A DNA stretch of 64,000 nucleotides, taken from the NCBI GenBank assembly GCA_051294905.1, contig CM119372.1, forward strand, positions 14,882,001-14,946,000, in the 5' to 3' direction. The DNA is from Botryllus schlosseri. Its lineage: Eukaryota. The notes under the pieces were generated by a model that was given only the letters and a program-made list of their open reading frames with translations, was not told the DNA's origin and searched no databases. Numbering within the stretch: the first letter of the stretch is position 1; every line of letters begins with the position of its first letter. Shown in pieces: positions 16,301 through 24,130 of the stretch. The translations under genes and the position numbers were made by a program.

Positions 16301-19300
16301 AATGTACCAGGGCTGTGGAGTCGGAATCTCGAGTCAGGCCACTTAGGAGTTGAAGCCAGAGATGCACTTTACAACTCGGCGAGTTGGCAGTTGGAGTCAA
16401 AATTTCAAATTTCAATCTTGCGGGGTCGCAATTTTTTTTTAAAAGCAGAGCTCTGAGCAGGGTTGTAATGACTTGATTCATGACTCGACTCGAGTCATGA
16501 TTTTTTTGTGAGTCGACTTGACTCGAGTCATCTTTCAAATACGTAAATTGACTCGACTCGAGTCAATGTTTGTATTGACTCGACTTGTACTCGAGTCATT
16601 GTGCATGACTCGAACCAAGTCATATGACTCGAGACTGGGACGGCCAAGACAGACATTTCATTGTAACTTCGAAGAATAGTAAAGTCACCACATTTTTGGT
16701 ATTTCGTCTATCAGTCCTGATACTTGGAAAATGAGGTAAGAAAATGTTAGGACTGAGGAAAATTACGATATTATGAAGGCGAGCCATTCTATATCATTCG
16801 AGGAGAATTATAAAAAGTGGGTTGAACTGGATTGAACTCAAAACTGAACAGTGAACACAATGACTTGGACTCGAACTTGAGTCACAATACTATGACTCAG
16901 ACTCGACCCTCTACTCACTGACTCGGACTTGACTCGGTGGTGAATTGAAAATGACTCGACTTGACTTGAGTCAAAACGAAGGGTGAGATTGACATGTGAC
17001 TTGGAACCTTGTGACTTGGTTACAACCCTGGCTTTGAGTCAGAGTTGCGCTCTGGAATCTTGCGATAGTCGAGAGTCGAGTCGCATGGAAATTTATGCAA
17101 ACCTCCAGCCCTTTTGGTAACAGGCATAGGCTATATACATATACCGGTACTCCGGTACATTAGTAAACATTAGTAAATATCTACAAAATTATATTAAATA
17201 GTGTTTGTTCGATAGCATAATGGAAAAATACGCCGATGAAAATATCATATTGGTATTGCTTGTCCTCATCACCTGAACTGTATTTCTCGAAGGATAACTG
17301 AAGTTGACATTTCTGAATGAAATTTCTCCATCGCTTGACTGAGGTTTGAGTCCCGTGTCCGAGAATACATCTATCGCAGGTTCCCTGTCGATCACAGTGA
17401 ATATCTTTTGTGCTGCTGCCTTTGCAGCAGAAAAGTACTCCATGTTGCCACCGGCCTGTGATAAATGATTCTCGTGGTGATGTTTGCCGCTCCTTATTAA
17501 ACCGCAATTTCAGCTTACCGTTCCCAGAGCAAAGGCTGCTATTAGAACATTGTAGAAGACGACCATCATATCTCCGGGTGTTAATTGGTCATCGGACTTC
17601 TTTACAACCAAATGCACGCCATACCAGAAAGTGACGGCGTAACTCCCAAACATGGCGAGATAGAGCAGACCAATACTTGCCCCCGTCAAAGTTCCTCGTT
17701 TTATGCCCAGAACTCTTGCCTTTTTTAACATTGATGAGTACCTGAAAACAGTTGGGTCATTTCTACTGATTTGACAATAAAGAGGACAAAAATACTGATC
17801 AGGAGTATCCAATGTTATATAATTATTCATTTTCTGATAACTAATTGCTAATTGCCATACAAACCAACATTAGGACACTGATAGAACTTGAAATAAGACT
17901 AAAAGCTTACAGTGAGTTATGTATAACGGCAGACAAATTTTGCTAGTGACCAGTTTTGTTGTGGATTCAGAAGACGATATGGGTTACTATGATTTAATTC
18001 GGGTGAAAATTGCCTGATACAACGGATTTTAAACATCTGTTACATGATCAAAAAGCTTCGACATCATTTTTCAAGACATTGCGATGCAGTCCCAATTTTG
18101 GCCAAGATTTGAAAAGTGATGTTTCATTAACAAAAACTATTGAATGATTCACCATTTTAATGTCAATATCATTTTGAAAACCTGTGCAAGCAACGTCAGC
18201 CATCATATATACCAAGATATTACTCTACTTTTCAAAACGATTGTCTTGAATTCCAAAAGCCACAACAGTCCGTATCGCCGATATGGTCTCTTCAGCGATC
18301 GATCCAGCGGATGCATATGCGTCGAGTTCTTTTTGCGTATATGAAGCTGACAACTGTAAATTTAACCAACTGTAAATTCATCGTTACAATTGCAGAATCT
18401 TAATAGGTCCGCGAGGTTTACATACGGCAAAGAAAAATCCAGAGCCGAAAATTGTTAGTGGAGTGACGGCTAACGACACCAGCGTTAGTTTCCAAGAGTG
18501 CATAAACGCTAGCGTGAGCCCAACGGCGATCAAAACAAATTGCTGAAGCGTCACGGGCACTTTGTCAGCCATGCCATCATAGACCTTCTTGATATCGCTG
18601 CAAGTATATCACCAGGTAGAATCCGCCGTGTACTAGCCATACTCCGTAAGTCAACACTTACTCGGAAAGCCGCGAGTTTATCTCTCCCGGAGGGTTCAAA
18701 TCGTGATATCCGATGTCCTGCCGTAGAACTGCCCTGACATATTTCACCCGGATTTGATTGGTTTGCCTGAAAATACAAATGGGAACATTCATCGAATTGG
18801 AAATGAAATGATGACAGATTTCAATGAGATACCGTGAAGCTTGCAGGCAGAAGGTTCCAGTTTGAAGCGTTGCAAAAACTAGCACTCCTGTAGCAATGTA
18901 GACCAAGTAGTAGATATAAGGGAGAGTATTTTCTCCTAAATTTCTTGCAGATTCCGAGGCATTAGCAAATTCCCTGTGGACAAGAGGATGGATTGACATC
19001 TGAAGACTGGTGCGGTGACTGTTGTTAAAAAGATGTGCAATGAAGCATGGTATACTGGATAGAATACAACTTGATGGGAGTTTGCGGTTTCAGCGCTGTT
19101 AGAAACTCTATCGCCAATTATCACAGACCTTTTCCAGCAATTTTACTTCCTGTTAATGACAGTTACCACTGTATCACATCTTTCTTTTACAAGCTCATAA
19201 AGCGAGTGTAATTTGAAATTGGAAGACTAAAAATTGACAAAATGATTCGAGACATATATAGGCGAATATATCCCGATGACATTTGACGATGTAGTAATGG

Positions 19301-22300
19301 CGTTTTGTGAGAATGCATTCCTGCATTGTTTTCAGTTGAAGTATAATAATATCCAATCGGGAATTTCATGATGCCTCGTGTTTGCTGTAAGAAATATTGA
19401 TAATAACTGATTGGTGGTGGATACTCTCATATCTGTGTGTATACACGTTGTTCTAAAATTATCTACACGGTAAACAACATTCAGTGCAGTCTTCTTGTAT
19501 GTGTCTATGGTGTGTGGCTATCATGATACGTCATTTCGATACGTGAAATCCCGGTTGGTTGAGATAGAACACACAGCAACATAGCCCTCGGCATGTAATT
19601 GAAATTGCCGTTTTTATCCTAAACCGTCCCATTCATCACTCCTCGCAACATGTGTATGTTTTGATAGTTTGTTTTAGATATAATAAAATCCTGCTACTAT
19701 CAGTGGCTGTTGTTACTTAATGATATACAGCGAAACGCCTCACTGCCGGACACGCGGTGACAAGTCACTAAGGAAGTCACACAAGACGCGATCAGTAATG
19801 GTATAACTTGCGGTTCGCCAAAACTTTGCCAAGCATTCTCACATATCAAAGAAGTGTGAGCACGATGATAATCACACAATAATATGAGCATGGGCACTGT
19901 ACGAGAGCTAGCATATTGAACAATAATGACTGTTTCTTGAGTTCAAAAGTGGTGAGTGATAAGGTACGGTACTTCTACTTTTTGGAGTACTCAAGCAGGT
20001 TTTGTCTGTCTACTTGGTGGTGCTATTTTCACACTACTTCCACATCCACCTCAGCAGTTTTTGAGGCCAATTAGGATTTTGTTCAGGTTAAAAACAGCAT
20101 TTGGACAGACCTGAATCACTTTTATGGTTGAAATCCGCATGATAACCTTGTGACAAAAGCAATGTATCACAGTAATAGTATTTGAATATATATTTGAAAA
20201 CTACAAGAATTTGTGGCACCGTCAGTCATTCTGTATTAATCACGAAGATGATTCTTGCAATATTGACAGTTATCGCTGTCCATTGACGAATAATAATGAC
20301 CTGTCATCATAATCTACTTGAAATAATTTGTGAAACTTGAGTATTCTTCTGCCCGACATTTTGTATTTCAATTCAAAGTAGTTTTGGTACGTATTGAAGA
20401 TTGCTGCATTTACTTGTAATTGAGTAAAGACATTTACAAAATTACTTCGACTAGCATGATCAACCCTGACCAACTCCCCGATATACTTATGCATGTAAAT
20501 GCAATGATGAATTGGCATAATTCACAGAAATTAGCAGCGTATCAGTGGACAGCGGACACCTCAGGTGCAAGCAGTGCTTGGCAAATATTGATTGAGCTGC
20601 ATTCTTTTGGCAAAAATTATTATTGGAGTGCCAGCAGCCTGTGGTTTAAGTAGAAAGACGTCTCGATACTCACTCTTCTGTACCATTAAACAGCCCGTCA
20701 TTGACACAGGTAGTGTAATTGAAATTACATTCCTTGAATATCCCAAAAGTGGTGAAAGCATCGGTAAGCTTTCCAAAAAACAAGAACATCACAGGCAGTC
20801 CAGCACCGTGTGCTGTAGCTGATACAACTCCAATTAGCAGCAGCAGAATATCCGCACAAGTAGCGTATCGGAACTGAATATAATAGAATAGTGTATAATA
20901 ATATGATACATCTTCAGAACAAAACGACAAGAGTTGAAATTCACACTCTGGGTAATCACTAGCTAAAATCATAAATATTCCTTATACAATTAAATAGTAT
21001 ATTCATATTGAAATGAACCCGAATATTTTCGGCTGACACTCGTCAGGGGTAATCGTCAGCAACTAGTAGAGAATTGGAAAGAACATTGTATATCAACAAT
21101 CGTATCACAAAATATGACGTCACCAGCATGAAATTTCGAATGAGAGAGCGTTCAATGTACTATTTTTAGGTGATACACGAACTCCTTTTGTTGACAGAGT
21201 TTTGGTTGGTGTATTTTGATAAAAGTTGATTCCAAGGCACACAAATGGGGTCTTTGCGATCCCGTCGGTCTGATGGCGCTGTATGTTTCTGCCGTTAGGA
21301 CACCGTTTTTCTTCAATGTCAGCAAACGGTTGGTCAGTCGTCTTTCAATTTTAGGTGTATTATCAAATTCCGAAACCGAACCAAGCGAGATAAATTTGGT
21401 TTTGTCATGCAATATTGATTCCATTTTCGAAATGTAGTCAGCTTTGTTCAGAATGACAACACCGGATCCTTTGTCTGGTTTGGTGATGTGAATTTCAGGG
21501 TTGGATCGCAATGCTTTGATGGCTAGGAAACACTCTTTGTTCATCAGGAAGTCCGCCTTGTCGACCGGGCATCCACAATACGAATGCGCCAAATCTGATA
21601 ACCGAGCTTTGAGAGCAGGTATACCCTCGTCTGATTTAGGTTCGTGGTGTTTTAATTGGCCGAGGAGAACTTCAAATTCCGCAAATACCTCCTCATTCTT
21701 GACAGTGGTAGGCGGCAGGCAAAAATTGAGCCCATGGGATAAAACAAATTCTTCAGTCGGGCTTAGCTTATGATCTGATAAGTTGAGTATATTCTTCTTG
21801 CTTGGACTTGCATTGCTACCGAATCGCTGGCTAACTAAGCGGTTAATGCCACGTTCGTTCCTTGTTGTATTCTGCTTTTCTTTGATAGTATCTATCGATG
21901 CCAAATAACGGCAGAAGCGAAATAAGTCGAAAAACGACAGGATTGAACGTACTTCCTTCTGCAGCGATCGACAAACACGGCGGAGAGTAGTAACCAACTT
22001 CTCATTCTTCCCAATCTCGTCATATAAAAACGCTTGTTCCATTCTAGGATTGTGGATGCCCGGTCGACAAGGCGGAATTCCTGATGAACAAAGAGTGTTT
22101 CCTAGCCATCAAAGCATTGCGATCCAACCCTGAAATTCACATCACCAAACCAGACAAAGGATCCGGTGTTGTCATTCTGAACAAAGCTGACTACATTTCG
22201 AAAATGGAATCAATATTGCATGACAAAACCAAATTTATCTCGCTTGGTTCGGTTTCGGAATTTGATAATACACCTAAAATTGAAAGACGACTGACCAACC

Positions 22301-24130
22301 GTTTGCTGACATTGAAGAAAAACGGTGTCCTAACGGCAGAAACATACAGCGCCATCAGACCGACGGGATCGCAAAGACCCCATTTGTGTGCCTTGGAATC
22401 AACTTTTATCAAAATACACCAACCAAAACTCTGTCAACAAAAGGAGTTCGTGTATCACCTAAAAATAGTACATTGAACGCTCTCTCATTCGAAATTTCAT
22501 GCTGGTGACGTCATATTTTGTGATACGATTGTTGATATACAATGTTCTTTCCAATTCTCTACTAGTTGCTGACGATTACCCCTGACGAGTGTCAGCCGAA
22601 AATATTCGGGTTCATTTCAATATGAATATACTATTTAATTGTATATTGAAGTTCTGTACCTCCAAGAAGCTCTTCAAATATTCCTTACCAGACGATAATA
22701 CGGCACAGACTTCACAGGTTCATCAGACTTTGAAGAAGACTGCTCTTCATCACATCCGTTGTCAGGTTGTTTTACCCGAACATCAAATGAGTCATCCAAA
22801 CTGCAAACATAATTGCGAAACTTACTTGTTCTGATTATTATACAGGAGAGTGTCCCATCTCCATAAATTATCATTAATTAGTAAATTTTTTCACCAGTCA
22901 CAGACTCAACACTATTGCTTGCTCTATGGTGACAAAGTAAACTGTAAAGCGGCATGCCGGTGGGAATTATAAAAAAATATCATACATTATATACATTTTA
23001 TATTTTGCAAACGAGTATTTTTCCACTTAAATTTCAGATTTGGAGGCTTTCAGCTACATAGACATTAGTGACATTGCAAACATTTGATTGCATTTTTTTA
23101 TCCATGTTTCTTAATTTACAGATTCTCAGTACTAAGATGGATTGACCTTGACACAATGATAGGAAAATTTGAAAGCATGTGCACTTTCAGGAATGACATG
23201 GGAAAGAACATATTTCTCGAAGTTATGGAGATGGATCTACGCGACAATTTCATAAACTCCATATGCCTGCCAAAATAATGTTATAATTGTGACACGATTG
23301 TTGATATACAATGCATTTTTCCATTTCCCTACTAATTGCTGGCGATTACCTGTGACGAGTGCCAGCCGAAAATATACGGGATCATTACAATATGAATATA
23401 CTACACAATTGTATATTAAAGTTTTGTTTCGCGAACAATCTCTTCATTATATAAGGGGGAATATCCATATTCAATACATTATTTAGGACTTCATTATAAC
23501 TGCGACATCCGGCCAATGTTCCGCATGACCACCAGCAATCAGTGTTGCACATGAGCAAGTGAAAACTGATGGTGCGTCACGTCATGATAAAGTAAGTTGC
23601 CTATTAAACTTGGTATATGCACGTCATAGATTCAAGCATTAATCAAATTGATGTGTTCTACAATTTAGGTCAAATACAGATACATGCTCATCTTTTCAAT
23701 ACACGCACTAGTGACGAGCAAGATTAGAATGCATATCGAAGTTTGACATATCAAAATTCAAAGCATCATTGTAGAGCCTACTTTTAAAGTAATTTCATAA
23801 AATTACATCTATAAAATCAAAAATGCCTTCATTTGTTTTGTATAAAGGAAGCTGCTTCAAGTGTTAATCCAAATTTTGAAGATAGGCGTCAATACGAGTA
23901 TATGCTAAATTTGGTGTTGGATTCAATCCAAGAGTGTTCCGTACATTTACTTAGTTTACAAAAACAAATGCATGACTGGAGAGGACTTTCGAAATACATT
24001 AATAAAAATGCATCTAAAAATTCGAAAATGCAGTTGTTGCTGAAAGACCACTCGATGATAACGTAAGGTTATTCAAATAAACTTACTAATCGCCTTCATC
24101 TTCGTTCAATAGTAGTTGGCGGGTCTCCAT
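4354..24130 (-). CDS. ABCB1: ABCB1/MDR1-like (P-glycoprotein) full-length ABC transporter, 27 coding exons, ~1306 aa
   Basis: Manually spliced GT-AG exons (minus): 24087-24130, 22689-22800, 20674-20873, 18833-18973, 18662-18766, 18426-18597, 18229-18353, 17519-17741, 17273-17455, 15985-16101, 15569-15781, 12932-13112, 12664-12870, 11310-11422, 10924-11014, 10322-10500, 8837-9047, 8448-8597, 7744-7849, 7540-7680, 6448-6604, 6146-6343, 5972-6084, 4872-4965, 4668-4814, 4445-4614, 4354-4381. They sum to 3921 nt in one frame. Architecture is TMD-NBD-TMD-NBD with two Walker A motifs (GQSGCGKST), two [14 protein letters not shown] signatures, Walker [11 protein letters not shown] and H-loops AHRLST. 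The protein starts METRQLL and ends [11 protein letters not shown]. Orthology within ABCB1/4/5/11 cannot be resolved, so the symbol means ABCB1-like. Confidence 0.93.
6933..7265 (-). mobile_element. tRNA-derived SINE (Meta-domain-like), copy 1
   Basis: On the minus strand: A box tagcgtaatgg, B box ggttcgatccc, then gtcagaccaaagac...ggtatccatgacttccctgcttggcgctca and a (tttcc)n tail. Nearly identical to 25325-25656. Confidence 0.85.
9529..10258. mobile_element. hAT (Charlie-like) MITE
   Basis: TIR cagtgattcccaac / gttgggaaccactg, with a perfect 8-bp TSD ctcaagat (9521-28, 10259-66). Confidence 0.9.
11924..12614 (+). mobile_element. Internally deleted hAT element retaining a transposase C-terminal fragment
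   Basis: Imperfect TIR cagggagattatttttgac / gtcaaaaaataaccgccgta, with TSD gtaattac/gcaattac. The peptide [11 protein letters not shown]...KDRQFQPE resembles the hAT dimerisation motif (S..VERxFS). Confidence 0.65.
13244..14704. mobile_element. 'gggatcccggga' MITE containing nested hAT MITE(s)
   Basis: Outer TIR gttgggatcccgggaaatcccgatcccgggatt / aatcccgggg...tcccaacccta. The inner element 13379-14556 (cagtggtctcaaa...tttgacccctg) has TSD gtctaaaa/gtctaaac. A further caggggtggccaacc end lies at ~13759. Confidence 0.75.
16308..17112. mobile_element. GGAGTC-type MITE with a nested GACTCGAGTC-rich hAT MITE (16458-17030)
   Basis: Outer termini cagggctgtggagtcgg...ctccagccct. Inner TIR cagggttgtaa/ttacaaccctg with 8-bp TSD gctctgag/gctttgag. 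Confidence 0.8.
21017..21060 (-). ncRNA. Minimal type I hammerhead ribozyme (PLE pLTR), copy 1; sense to the ABCB1 pre-mRNA
   Basis: The reverse complement reads GCUGAC-GAUU-ACCC-CUGACGA-G-UGUCAGC-C-GAAA-AUAU-UC-GGGU. This gives stem I ACCC/GGGU, core CUGANGA and GAAA, a 1-bp stem II, a palindromic stem III AAUAUU and a UUC cleavage triplet. Confidence 0.8.
21152..22042 (-). CDS. PLE-derived ORF (296 aa): N-terminal/DKG region fused in frame to the extreme C-terminus; RT and endonuclease cores deleted
   Basis: From the ORF track. After ...RPTGSQRP, where PLE RTs normally continue to a YGLPKxHK motif, the sequence jumps to [17 protein letters not shown]. No YxDD or GIY-YIG catalytic motifs are present. 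The last 130 aa are repeated on the plus strand at 22084-22476. Confidence 0.75.
   Translation of the reverse strand: MEQAFLYDEIGKNEKLVTTLRRVCRSLQKEVRSILSFFDLFRFCRYLASIDTIKEKQNTTRNERGINRLVSQRFGSNASPSKKNILNLSDHKLSPTEEFVLSHGLNFCLPPTTVKNEEVFAEFEVLLGQLKHHEPKSDEGIPALKARLSDLAHSYCGCPVDKADFLMNKECFLAIKALRSNPEIHITKPDKGSGVVILNKADYISKMESILHDKTKFISLGSVSEFDNTPKIERRLTNRLLTLKKNGVLTAETYSAIRPTGSQRPHLCALESTFIKIHQPKLCQQKEFVYHLKIVH
22568..22611 (+). ncRNA. Minimal type I hammerhead ribozyme (PLE pLTR), copy 2
   Basis: Stem I is accc 22578-81 paired with gggt 22608-11. Core ctgacga is at 22582-88, stem II is g22589:c22597, gaaa is at 22598-601 and the palindrome aatatt is at 22601-06. Predicted cleavage is after C22607. 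The 5' gctgac (22568-73) is complementary to loop II gtcagc (22591-96). Confidence 0.8.
23287..23417 (+). mobile_element. Diverged solitary PLE 3' end/pLTR fragment with degenerate hammerhead (ABCB1 intron 1)
   Basis: Colinear with 22517-22647 (ttgtga.acgattgttgatatacaatg...tgacgagtg.cagccgaaaatat.cggg...caatatgaatatacta...attgtatatt). The core is mutated (gtgacga instead of ctgacga; atac instead of attc). Confidence 0.8.

Follow-up and report, generated by a model that had tools for sequence, protein, structure and literature searches.

Introduction

The hammerhead ribozymes described from Penelope-like elements (PLEs) by Cervera and de la Pena (2014) are minimal forms located in the pseudo-long terminal repeat (pLTR) or 3' untranslated region (UTR) of the element, present as thousands of dispersed copies and as inverted pairs, in which a helix I of 4-5 bp is combined with a G10.1-C11.1 pair, a palindrome at positions 15.2-16.2 and a U3-A8 variant of the core, and they are expected to act as dimers with low or protein-assisted activity (PMC4209133). 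A review likewise presents PLE hammerheads as minimal variants without helix III or loop-loop contacts (PMC7761336), and in the passages cited here the known examples all have a hairpin stem II (PMC4209133; File S2 of PMC8557442). Some PLEs without a canonical hammerhead carry a bare 'HHR_core' (HHR, hammerhead ribozyme), consisting of CUGANGA, 7-17 nt and GAAA (Craig et al., 2021; PMC8557442). The subject of the present analysis is a PLE hammerhead whose stem II appears to be built in another way, found in a stretch of 64,000 nucleotides of the Botryllus schlosseri genome (assembly GCA_051294905.1, contig CM119372.1, positions 14,882,001 to 14,946,000 of the forward strand), which is referred to as the window and supplies the position numbers used below.

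Pseudoknot (PK) hammerheads are known from bacterial and phage sequences. This design was described by Weinberg et al. (2015), as cited in PMC12192606 and PMC11300833, and its crystal structure was reported by Zhan et al. (2024; PDB 8YDC, PMC11300833). A 6-bp pseudoknot serves for helix II, and the loop involved is closed by A9.G12 and G10.1-C11.1 (PMC12192606, PMC11300833). In the cited parts of the structural study, an additional hairpin (helix IV) 5' of helix I presents the partner strand in its loop; the knot, formed in cis, shares its axis with helix III and runs parallel to helix I, an A-rich linker makes a minor-groove triplex with the partner strand, and the ribozyme, which has a normal helix III, is fast as a monomer (PMC11300833). 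Pseudoknots between stems I and II were reported for hammerheads of all three types by Perreault et al. (2011), who established by mutation and rescue that they are needed for speed (PMC3088659), and Eckert et al. (2023) described non-circularly permuted hammerheads of types SGC and CSG (PMC10085705).

Compared with these systems, as far as the cited passages describe them, the motif in the window shares with the PK hammerhead its type I connectivity, the full core, a 1-bp stem II, a partner strand 5' of helix I and the replacement of helix II by a knot of about 6 bp involving the loop closed by G10.1-C11.1; it differs in that the strand joins stem I over only 3-5 nt, with neither helix IV nor an A-rich triplex linker, in that stem III is a palindrome only, and in that the host is an animal retroelement. 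With the minimal PLE hammerheads it has in common location, copy dispersal, short helix I, G10.1-C11.1, palindrome and U3-A8 variant, but it has no stem II hairpin, the 5' strand of stem II being contributed by sequence upstream of stem I. The descriptor with which those hammerheads were searched for cannot find such a form, because it demands a hairpin stem II. The Watson-Crick pairing of the loop II region with sequence attached to stem I recalls the hammerheads of Perreault et al. (2011), in which, however, a normal stem II is present as well, the knot being an addition to it; here the knot stands in for stem II. An unusual 5'-3' order of parts, pseudoknot stems and a short linker between stems I and II are shared with the ribozymes of Eckert et al. 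(2023); in these the block formed by the stem I strand, CUGAnGA and the stem II strand is unbreakable, whereas here it is split after G10.1, and the order of blocks is that of a classic type I hammerhead (C-G-S). The idea of a knotted stem II, put forward as new in the initial annotation of this locus, is therefore not new as a design, and what appears new from the sequences is its host clade of animal retroelements and the lack of both helix IV and a stem III hairpin. Lunse et al. 2017 is said to deal with minimal hammerheads of PLEs. The literature search found no paper with a knotted stem II in a PLE hammerhead; a mention in that work or in Weinberg et al. (2015) is possible.

A hammerhead without a hairpin stem II

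The plus strand at window 22568-22611 holds, as first annotated, a full minimal type I hammerhead, every element of which is present where it had been placed (Table 1). The conserved core comprises CUGACGA, GAAA, U22606 (U16.1) and C22607 (H17, not G), and helix I is formed by ACCC/GGGU around the core and the cleavage site. Between A9 and G12 the sequence allows no hairpin helix II, the sole possible pair being G22589-C22597, which closes a 7-nt loop without an internal stem. The perfect complementarity claimed for the loop is borne out by the sequence: the loop hexamer GTCAGC (22591-96) is the exact reverse complement of GCTGAC (22568-73), which ends 4 nt before stem I, and G22574 and U22590 could add a seventh, G.U pair. 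No helix IV is possible, because the linker between upstream strand and stem I is too short. As in hammerheads of the dimer type there is no helix III hairpin, and positions 15.2-16.2 form the palindrome AAUAUU, so stem III is possible only between two copies. The upstream CUGACGA was considered as the real core and rejected by inspection, as it fits neither helix I nor helix II.

The motif lies in the 3' end of an element whose relatives encode reverse transcriptase (RT) and GIY-YIG domains. A remnant of its open reading frame (ORF), window 21152-22108 on the minus strand, gave no match in a Pfam search. Its longer relatives number 51 (559-866 aa); RVT_1 is among their precomputed domains, as is GIY-YIG in 2 of the 51. 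Against an 841-aa relative with RVT_1 at 355-540 and GIY-YIG at 720-824 (22.5 bits, the cut-off being 22.6), residues 77-353 are matched at 64% identity and the last 41 residues of the remnant (278-318) align to residues 801-841; a second relative clears the GIY-YIG cut-off. Because the ORF matches two separated parts of an RT and GIY-YIG protein, the window element is, on this alignment, an internally deleted PLE, inserted as two copies head to head, in which about 100 nt separate the stop codon from the hammerhead, and its earlier description as a PLE 3' end can be retained. At the deletion junction residue ~353 is followed by ~801, and a short stretch of similarity (RPTGS.RP / GRSSFHL) lies close by.

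The knotted helix across element families

The layout at this locus (6-nt strand, 3-5 nt linker, stem I, core, G, N, 6-nt strand, C, GAAA, palindrome, H, stem I) recurs in other PLE families with other sequences, and comparison among them carries the case for the helix. In 19 sequences from eight families 91.7% of the cells of a 7-pair helix are paired, against 23-40% when the partner strand is slid by 1-3 columns, and the covariation value of 0.627 compares with at most 0.10 in the slid controls; none of 500 shuffles reaches the score. A set of 39 sequences, made up of these 19, 19 of 20 fetched variants and the second copy in the window (copy 2), with decayed and hybrid copies kept and L142 omitted as identical to L141, gave 81.3% of cells paired against 25-39% slid and covariation of 0.494 against at most 0.09, again with 0 of 500 shuffles reaching the score. 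Changes on both sides occur at all seven pairs of the helix in both sets, and the first pair is found as GC (13), UA (11), CG (5) and AU (2). These counts show that the knotted helix is real and conserved. The proposal of a 6-bp Watson-Crick helix between loop II and the 5' flank, which would stand in for the near-absent stem II, is strongly supported by the sequences of the other PLE families, and not by the evidence originally cited for it. The catalytic pair C3-G8 covaries in the 39 rows (CG 17, UA 13, UG 6, other 3), and G10.1-C11.1 is G-C in 36 of 39.

The families come from several searches. A genome search with a distant PLE protein, in which 53 matches were scored of 5272 candidates, returned many full-length copies with uninterrupted frames of 827-879 aa, in tandem arrays with a period of about 2.72-2.78 kb, and the 3' UTRs of these array families hold hammerheads of the window layout, with other sequences, 150-300 nt after the stop codon (families B to E). 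A generic pattern with both strands left free and family A, the family of the window copy, excluded by a non-T at the spacer gave 914 + 1013 genome matches against 13 + 16 in the control; 20 loci were chosen for diversity among 100 listed rows. Metagenome contigs, scanned with an alignment of 12 PLE proteins, yielded 80 loci; those with the closest PLE proteins (45-76% identity) have the window layout (families F to H), and at greater distance (27-40% identity) the classic minimal hammerhead is found, with a hairpin helix II of 6-7 bp. A descriptor of the knotted layout matched 28 distinct motifs in real sequence; reversed or complemented sequence gave 1. When the pairing requirement was dropped, the motifs in undamaged PLE tails all had 5-7 Watson-Crick pairs, and background matches had 2-4. 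In all, 13 distinct strand combinations were observed, from GCUGAC/GUCAGC through ACAAUU/AAUUGU.

Other parts of the motif vary in sequence and keep their geometry. Helix I in other families is AUUCCC/GGGAAU, CGCUA/UAGCG, GCUC/GAGU, ACUC/GAGU, CACUG/CAGUG, ACAG/CUGU or CACA/UGUG, a diversity that is informative where the mere presence of the helix is not, since the scan demanded at least 4 pairs. The palindromes include AAGCUU, AAGUCUU, AAGUUCUU and AUAUAUAU. H17 in the intact families is C, or U in some copies, and A in one copy of variant K (L143). In every family strand and core are 8-9 nt apart, and strand and stem I 3-5 nt. With only 8-9 nt between core and GAAA the knotted families lack the hairpin helix II typical of PLEs; helix IV was ruled out in them for want of room, and a hairpin using part of the strand is not conserved.

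A quick maximum-likelihood tree was made of 23 ORFs, five of the 28 taken having been dropped as shorter than 350 aa (L082, L109, L062, L108, L133). The nine PK-type rows fall on one side of a branch with a Shimodaira-Hasegawa-like approximate likelihood ratio test (SH-aLRT) value of 100, opposite 14 hairpin-type rows, and they are nested among the latter under midpoint rooting, the true root not being established. The PLEs with the knotted form thus make up a single clade, set amid PLEs whose stem II is an ordinary hairpin.

Two sets of variants are of interest in their own right. Variant J (L145, L146; G000:C1:1187371-1187505 and 2014645-2014779), found four times among the 100 listed rows, has GGGAAACCC between core and GAAA, with a possible 3-bp hairpin stem II, and keeps GGUGCC as a relic of the upstream strand; from its sequence it could be a transitional or a dead form. 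The single-copy L155 (G000:C1:2725098-2725232) joins an upstream strand of L type, UCUGGC, to a loop strand of E2 type, GGCACA, and looks like a template-switch hybrid between families.

Table 1. Parts of the window hammerhead, associated features, and the strands of related families and variants
Feature	Position (window) or source	Strand	Sequence or description	Basis
Pseudoknot helix, 5' strand	22568..22573	+	GCUGAC (DNA GCTGAC)	Sequence; cross-family covariation
Linker, pseudoknot strand to stem I	22574..22577	+	GAUU, 4 nt	Sequence
Stem I, 5' strand	22578..22581	+	ACCC, 4-bp stem	Sequence; stem I differs yet is complementary among families
Catalytic core, C3-A9	22582..22588	+	CUGACGA	Sequence; C3/G8 columns covary
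G10.1 to C11.1	22589..22597	+	G10.1 = 22589; spacer U 22590; pseudoknot 3' strand GUCAGC 22591-96; C11.1 = 22597	Sequence
G12 A13 A14 A15.1 and palindrome	22598..22606	+	GAAA 22598-601; AAUAUU 22601-06	Sequence
C17, predicted scissile bond, stem I 3' strand	22607..22611	+	C17 = 22607; bond 22607/22608; GGGU 22608-11	Sequence
Element tail	22612..22680	+	Ends at several places: ~22630, 22635, 22675-80; 22650 in the left arm of the locus	Genomic and RNA copies
Right arm of perfect inverted repeat	22049..22650	+	5'-truncated copy of the internally deleted PLE	602 nt, 100% complementary
Longer head-to-head copy of the same element	20978..22048	-	ORF remnant 21152-22108; identical hammerhead ~21017-21060	Sequence comparison
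Copy 2, decayed older copy	23338..23381	+	GCUGGC/GCCAGC; core C3>G; U16.1>A	86% identity to copy 1; direct repeat 84%
Family B	Same genome		GCUGAC/GUCAGC; stem I AUUCCC; palindrome AAGCUU
Family B variant	Same genome		GCUGGC/GUCAGC (one G.U pair)
Family C	Same genome		ACUAAC/GUUAGU; core CUGAUGA
Family D	Same genome		CGUGCC/GGCACG; core UUGAUAA
Family E	Same genome		UGUGCC/GGCACC; core UUGAAAA
Variant L	Generic-pattern locus, same genome		UCUGGC/GCCAGA
Variant C2	Generic-pattern locus, same genome		ACUGAC/GUCAGU
Variant E2	Generic-pattern locus, same genome		UGUGCC/GGCACA or UGUGUC/GGCACA
Variant K	Generic-pattern locus, same genome		UGUGUC/CGCACG; core CUGACAA
Variant J	L145, L146		GGUGCC vs GAAACC (broken); without U16.1
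Family F	Metagenome contigs		UCUGAC/GUCAGA; core UUGAAGA
Family G	Metagenome contigs		GCAUU/AAUGC
Family H	Metagenome contigs		ACAAUU/AAUUGU; 10.1-11.1 = A-U

Variation within the main family

Family A is abundant: a 22-mer across loop II with up to 2 mismatches has 6920 + 6887 matches in the 495-Mb assembly and 0 + 0 in the backwards control, and the motif is therefore no chance match. Most of the copies sampled are 94-100% identical, so the family is young. The covariation that first suggested the helix came from copy 2, in which the strands read GCTGGC (23338-43) and GCCAGC (23361-66), an A-U pair of copy 1 having become G-C. Both changes are indeed present, but they are not evidence for pairing. 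Copy 2 is decayed: its core is dead (GTGACGA, C3>G), U16.1 has changed to A (AATATA) and stem I is weakened. In the family, moreover, the combination of G at 22572 and C at 22592 occurs at chance level. Among 73 copies with a non-T at 22592 and exact flanks (40 C, 26 A, 7 G; counted by hand), G at 22572 accompanies C in 2 of 40, A in 2 of 26 and G in 1 of 7. Conversely, in all 96 listed copies with G at 22572, likewise counted by hand, 22592 is C in 6, A in 3, G in 1 and T in 86. Covariation within the family, the check originally proposed for 22568-73 and 22591-96, is thus uninformative, the compensating pair being no commoner than the non-compensating ones; the covariation first cited is chance, and double changes within family A merely mark older copies, the 86% identical copy 2 among them. 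In RNA reads over 22552-22612, G22568A and C22581T alone are common among the variants listed. Two loci, L010 and L019, share the hammerhead from TGACGAG on, with unrelated upstream sequence and without C3 and stem I, and may represent a chimeric or recombinant subfamily.

Proposed mechanism and its alternatives

The explanation preferred here, to which a probability of roughly 0.78 is assigned, is that 22568-22611 is the 3'-UTR hammerhead of a PLE built as a PK hammerhead, with the knotted helix in place of helix II. Helix II would be reduced to G10.1-C11.1, and six of the seven loop bases would bind GCUGAC, 4 nt upstream of stem I. The resulting helix of 6-7 bp is most likely stacked against G10.1-C11.1 and takes over the function of helix II, as the knot does in the PK hammerhead of known structure; the distal ends of this helix and of stem I would be held together by the short linker. 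That the knot compensates for stem II, as originally suggested, we infer by analogy with that structure (PMC11300833). With stem III available as a palindrome only, cutting after C22607 should need two paired copies, such as would occur together on tandem-array transcripts, and would probably also need the element's own protein, by analogy with another PLE. Self-cleavage, action as a dimer and a role in the processing of tandem-array transcripts are what we infer from these sequence features. The conserved core, the covariation of C3-G8 and the kept palindromes speak for selection on an active fold in the master copies; copies with damaged motifs can still spread, as variants J and K show.

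A number of observations weigh against this proposal. The families are related, so the shuffle control exaggerates significance, and for this reason the argument is based on the slid controls and on how many different pair types occur. There are exceptions among the multi-copy variants, namely J, with its strands broken and U16.1 missing, K, with C3.A8, and F, with U3.G8. Inside the young family A variation in both pseudoknot strands looks neutral; this says little, because copies decay neutrally after insertion. A comparison with the Rfam hammerhead models, suggested at the outset as a check, was negative: no family reached its gathering score in the window, and even with E values up to 10 admitted no hammerhead model matched, whether in 22300-23600 or at 11 related loci, the inclusion of the PK model in the library being unconfirmed. 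This null carries little weight, because the same scan misses canonical PLE hammerheads too. The best predicted monomer fold is not a hammerhead (-12.2 kcal/mol, z -0.48), and the AAUAUU self-duplex is very weak at -0.2 kcal/mol; stem I alone has -2.4 kcal/mol, and the knot helix, calculated as a hairpin, -7.4 to -7.8 kcal/mol. Raw reads of bulk (X24) and single-cell (X22) RNA-seq, both carrying the same organism label, show over 22049-22720 no excess of molecule starts or ends at a threshold of at least 5 reads and a fifth of depth, the predicted cleavage site 22607/22608 included. In both data sets the two strands are equally covered and 98% of X24 reads continue into unlike sequence, which gives a picture of passive read-through. 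Cutting is not expected of solo copies carried in read-through transcripts, and absent ends are for that reason weak evidence. In an Anolis PLE, according to the cited parts of that study, insertion in vitro could proceed without the hammerhead, whose activity depended on the element protein and which gave rise to no RNA-seq ends; the RNA-end picture here resembles it (PMC11167929).

The same observations, together with the structure of the motif, bear on four other explanations. The complementarity might be chance or a by-product of an upstream GCUGACGA that duplicates the core CUGACGA, with a neutral change in copy 2 and no helix at all. The upstream strand does repeat the core heptamer, copy 2 is dead and its combination of G at 22572 and C at 22592 (G72/C92) is at chance level within the family; yet in families C, D, E, L, G and H the upstream strand is unlike the core and nevertheless follows the loop strand, pairing reaches 81-92% of cells against at most 40% in slid controls, and double changes occur at all pairs, which leaves this explanation hardly credible. 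A stronger contender, though an unlikely one, is that the helix is selected for something other than self-cleavage, as a 3'-UTR knot for RT recognition, initiation of reverse transcription or 3'-end formation, with the core idle or incidental. It would account for the missing RNA ends at the cleavage site, for AAUAAA just past stem I in families B-E and L and for the spread of variant J despite its broken motif, and it gains from the Anolis PLE, in which cleavage was protein-dependent and unneeded for insertion in vitro (PMC11167929). Set against it are the retention of all 11 core nucleotides, the covariation of the catalytic C3-G8 with U3-A8, an H17 that is never G and a stem III palindrome kept in each family, constraints that make sense only for an active hammerhead fold.

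The upstream strand could also be part of a switch, in which GUCAG pairs either with the core CUGAC, giving an inactive hairpin, or with the upstream strand, giving the active knot, and folding order or a partner decides between them. Families A, B, C and F could form such a core/loop hairpin, for which 81.9% of cells are paired overall. It is present in the predicted minimum-energy fold and, at -5.4 kcal/mol, is 2 kcal/mol weaker than the knot helix. Its covariation values are reached by 117-236 of 500 shuffles, the core being unable to vary, and it is largely lost in D and E (UUGAU/GGCAC of D offers 2 Watson-Crick pairs and 1 G.U at 5 positions), so that it was rejected as a conserved feature and the switch seems improbable. 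Pairing in trans, the upstream strand of one copy binding the loop of the other in a dimer, is rated no higher: the palindromic stem III is already intermolecular and covariation cannot separate cis from trans when both copies are identical, but the solved PK hammerhead forms its helix in cis (PMC11300833) and the constant 8-9 nt from strand to core fits a cis geometry.

Implications

The motif links two literatures that had been separate, that on the bacterial and phage pseudoknot hammerhead and that on the minimal hammerheads of PLEs. A whole clade of animal retroelements uses the knotted form, with about 13,800 main-family and about 1,900 generic-pattern copies in one genome. Censuses of animal hammerheads and statements that a PLE lacks a ribozyme may need revisiting, because neither the hairpin descriptor nor Rfam can find this form. 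The 13 natural compensated strand combinations amount to a ready mutational series for asking with how little RNA a hammerhead can manage and whether PLE hammerheads cut at all in vivo.

It is conceivable, though on balance doubtful, that a helix II made by pseudoknot arose independently in animal PLEs, as a stripped-down form of about 44 nt without helices IV and III. If this were true, descriptors based on the hairpin would have systematically missed knotted PLE hammerheads, and the 'HHR_core' PLEs of Craig et al. (2021) may carry knotted hammerheads as well, which would make the ribozyme universal in PLEs. In File S5 of PMC8557442 the Naiad consensus before the header Naiad-2_Dst has, by eye, CUGACGA, 8 nt, GAAA and an upstream complement of 5-6 nt (CCGGC/GCCGG); this 'HHR_core' is enclosed by a 9-bp long-range stem and has no clear stem I, and nothing clear was seen by eye in the other Naiad 'HHR_core' consensus 3' ends of that file.

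Neighbouring copies and further features

The window holds a third copy of the hammerhead, 100% identical, on the minus strand at ~21017-21060, in the left arm of an inverted repeat whose arms (20978-21579 and 22049-22650) are 602 nt each, 100% identical and 469 nt apart.

Every family has, some 70-90 nt before the hammerhead, a palindrome resembling a cAMP response element (CRE) (window 22493-22510 and the 3' UTRs of L040, L053, L050 and L038), with the sequence TGACGTCA in families A and B and TTACGTCA or TTGCGTCA in C, D and E, and this CRE-like palindrome may be part of a pLTR promoter. AAUAAA stands directly 3' of stem I at the loci representing families B, C, D, E and L (L040, L053, L050, L038 and L141), and is absent from window 22612-22625 in family A. 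Open frames on the minus strand at window 17189-17869 and 20670-20981 resemble exons of an ABC transporter transmembrane domain (ABCB-like); if they are such exons, the PLE copies are probably intronic in that gene.

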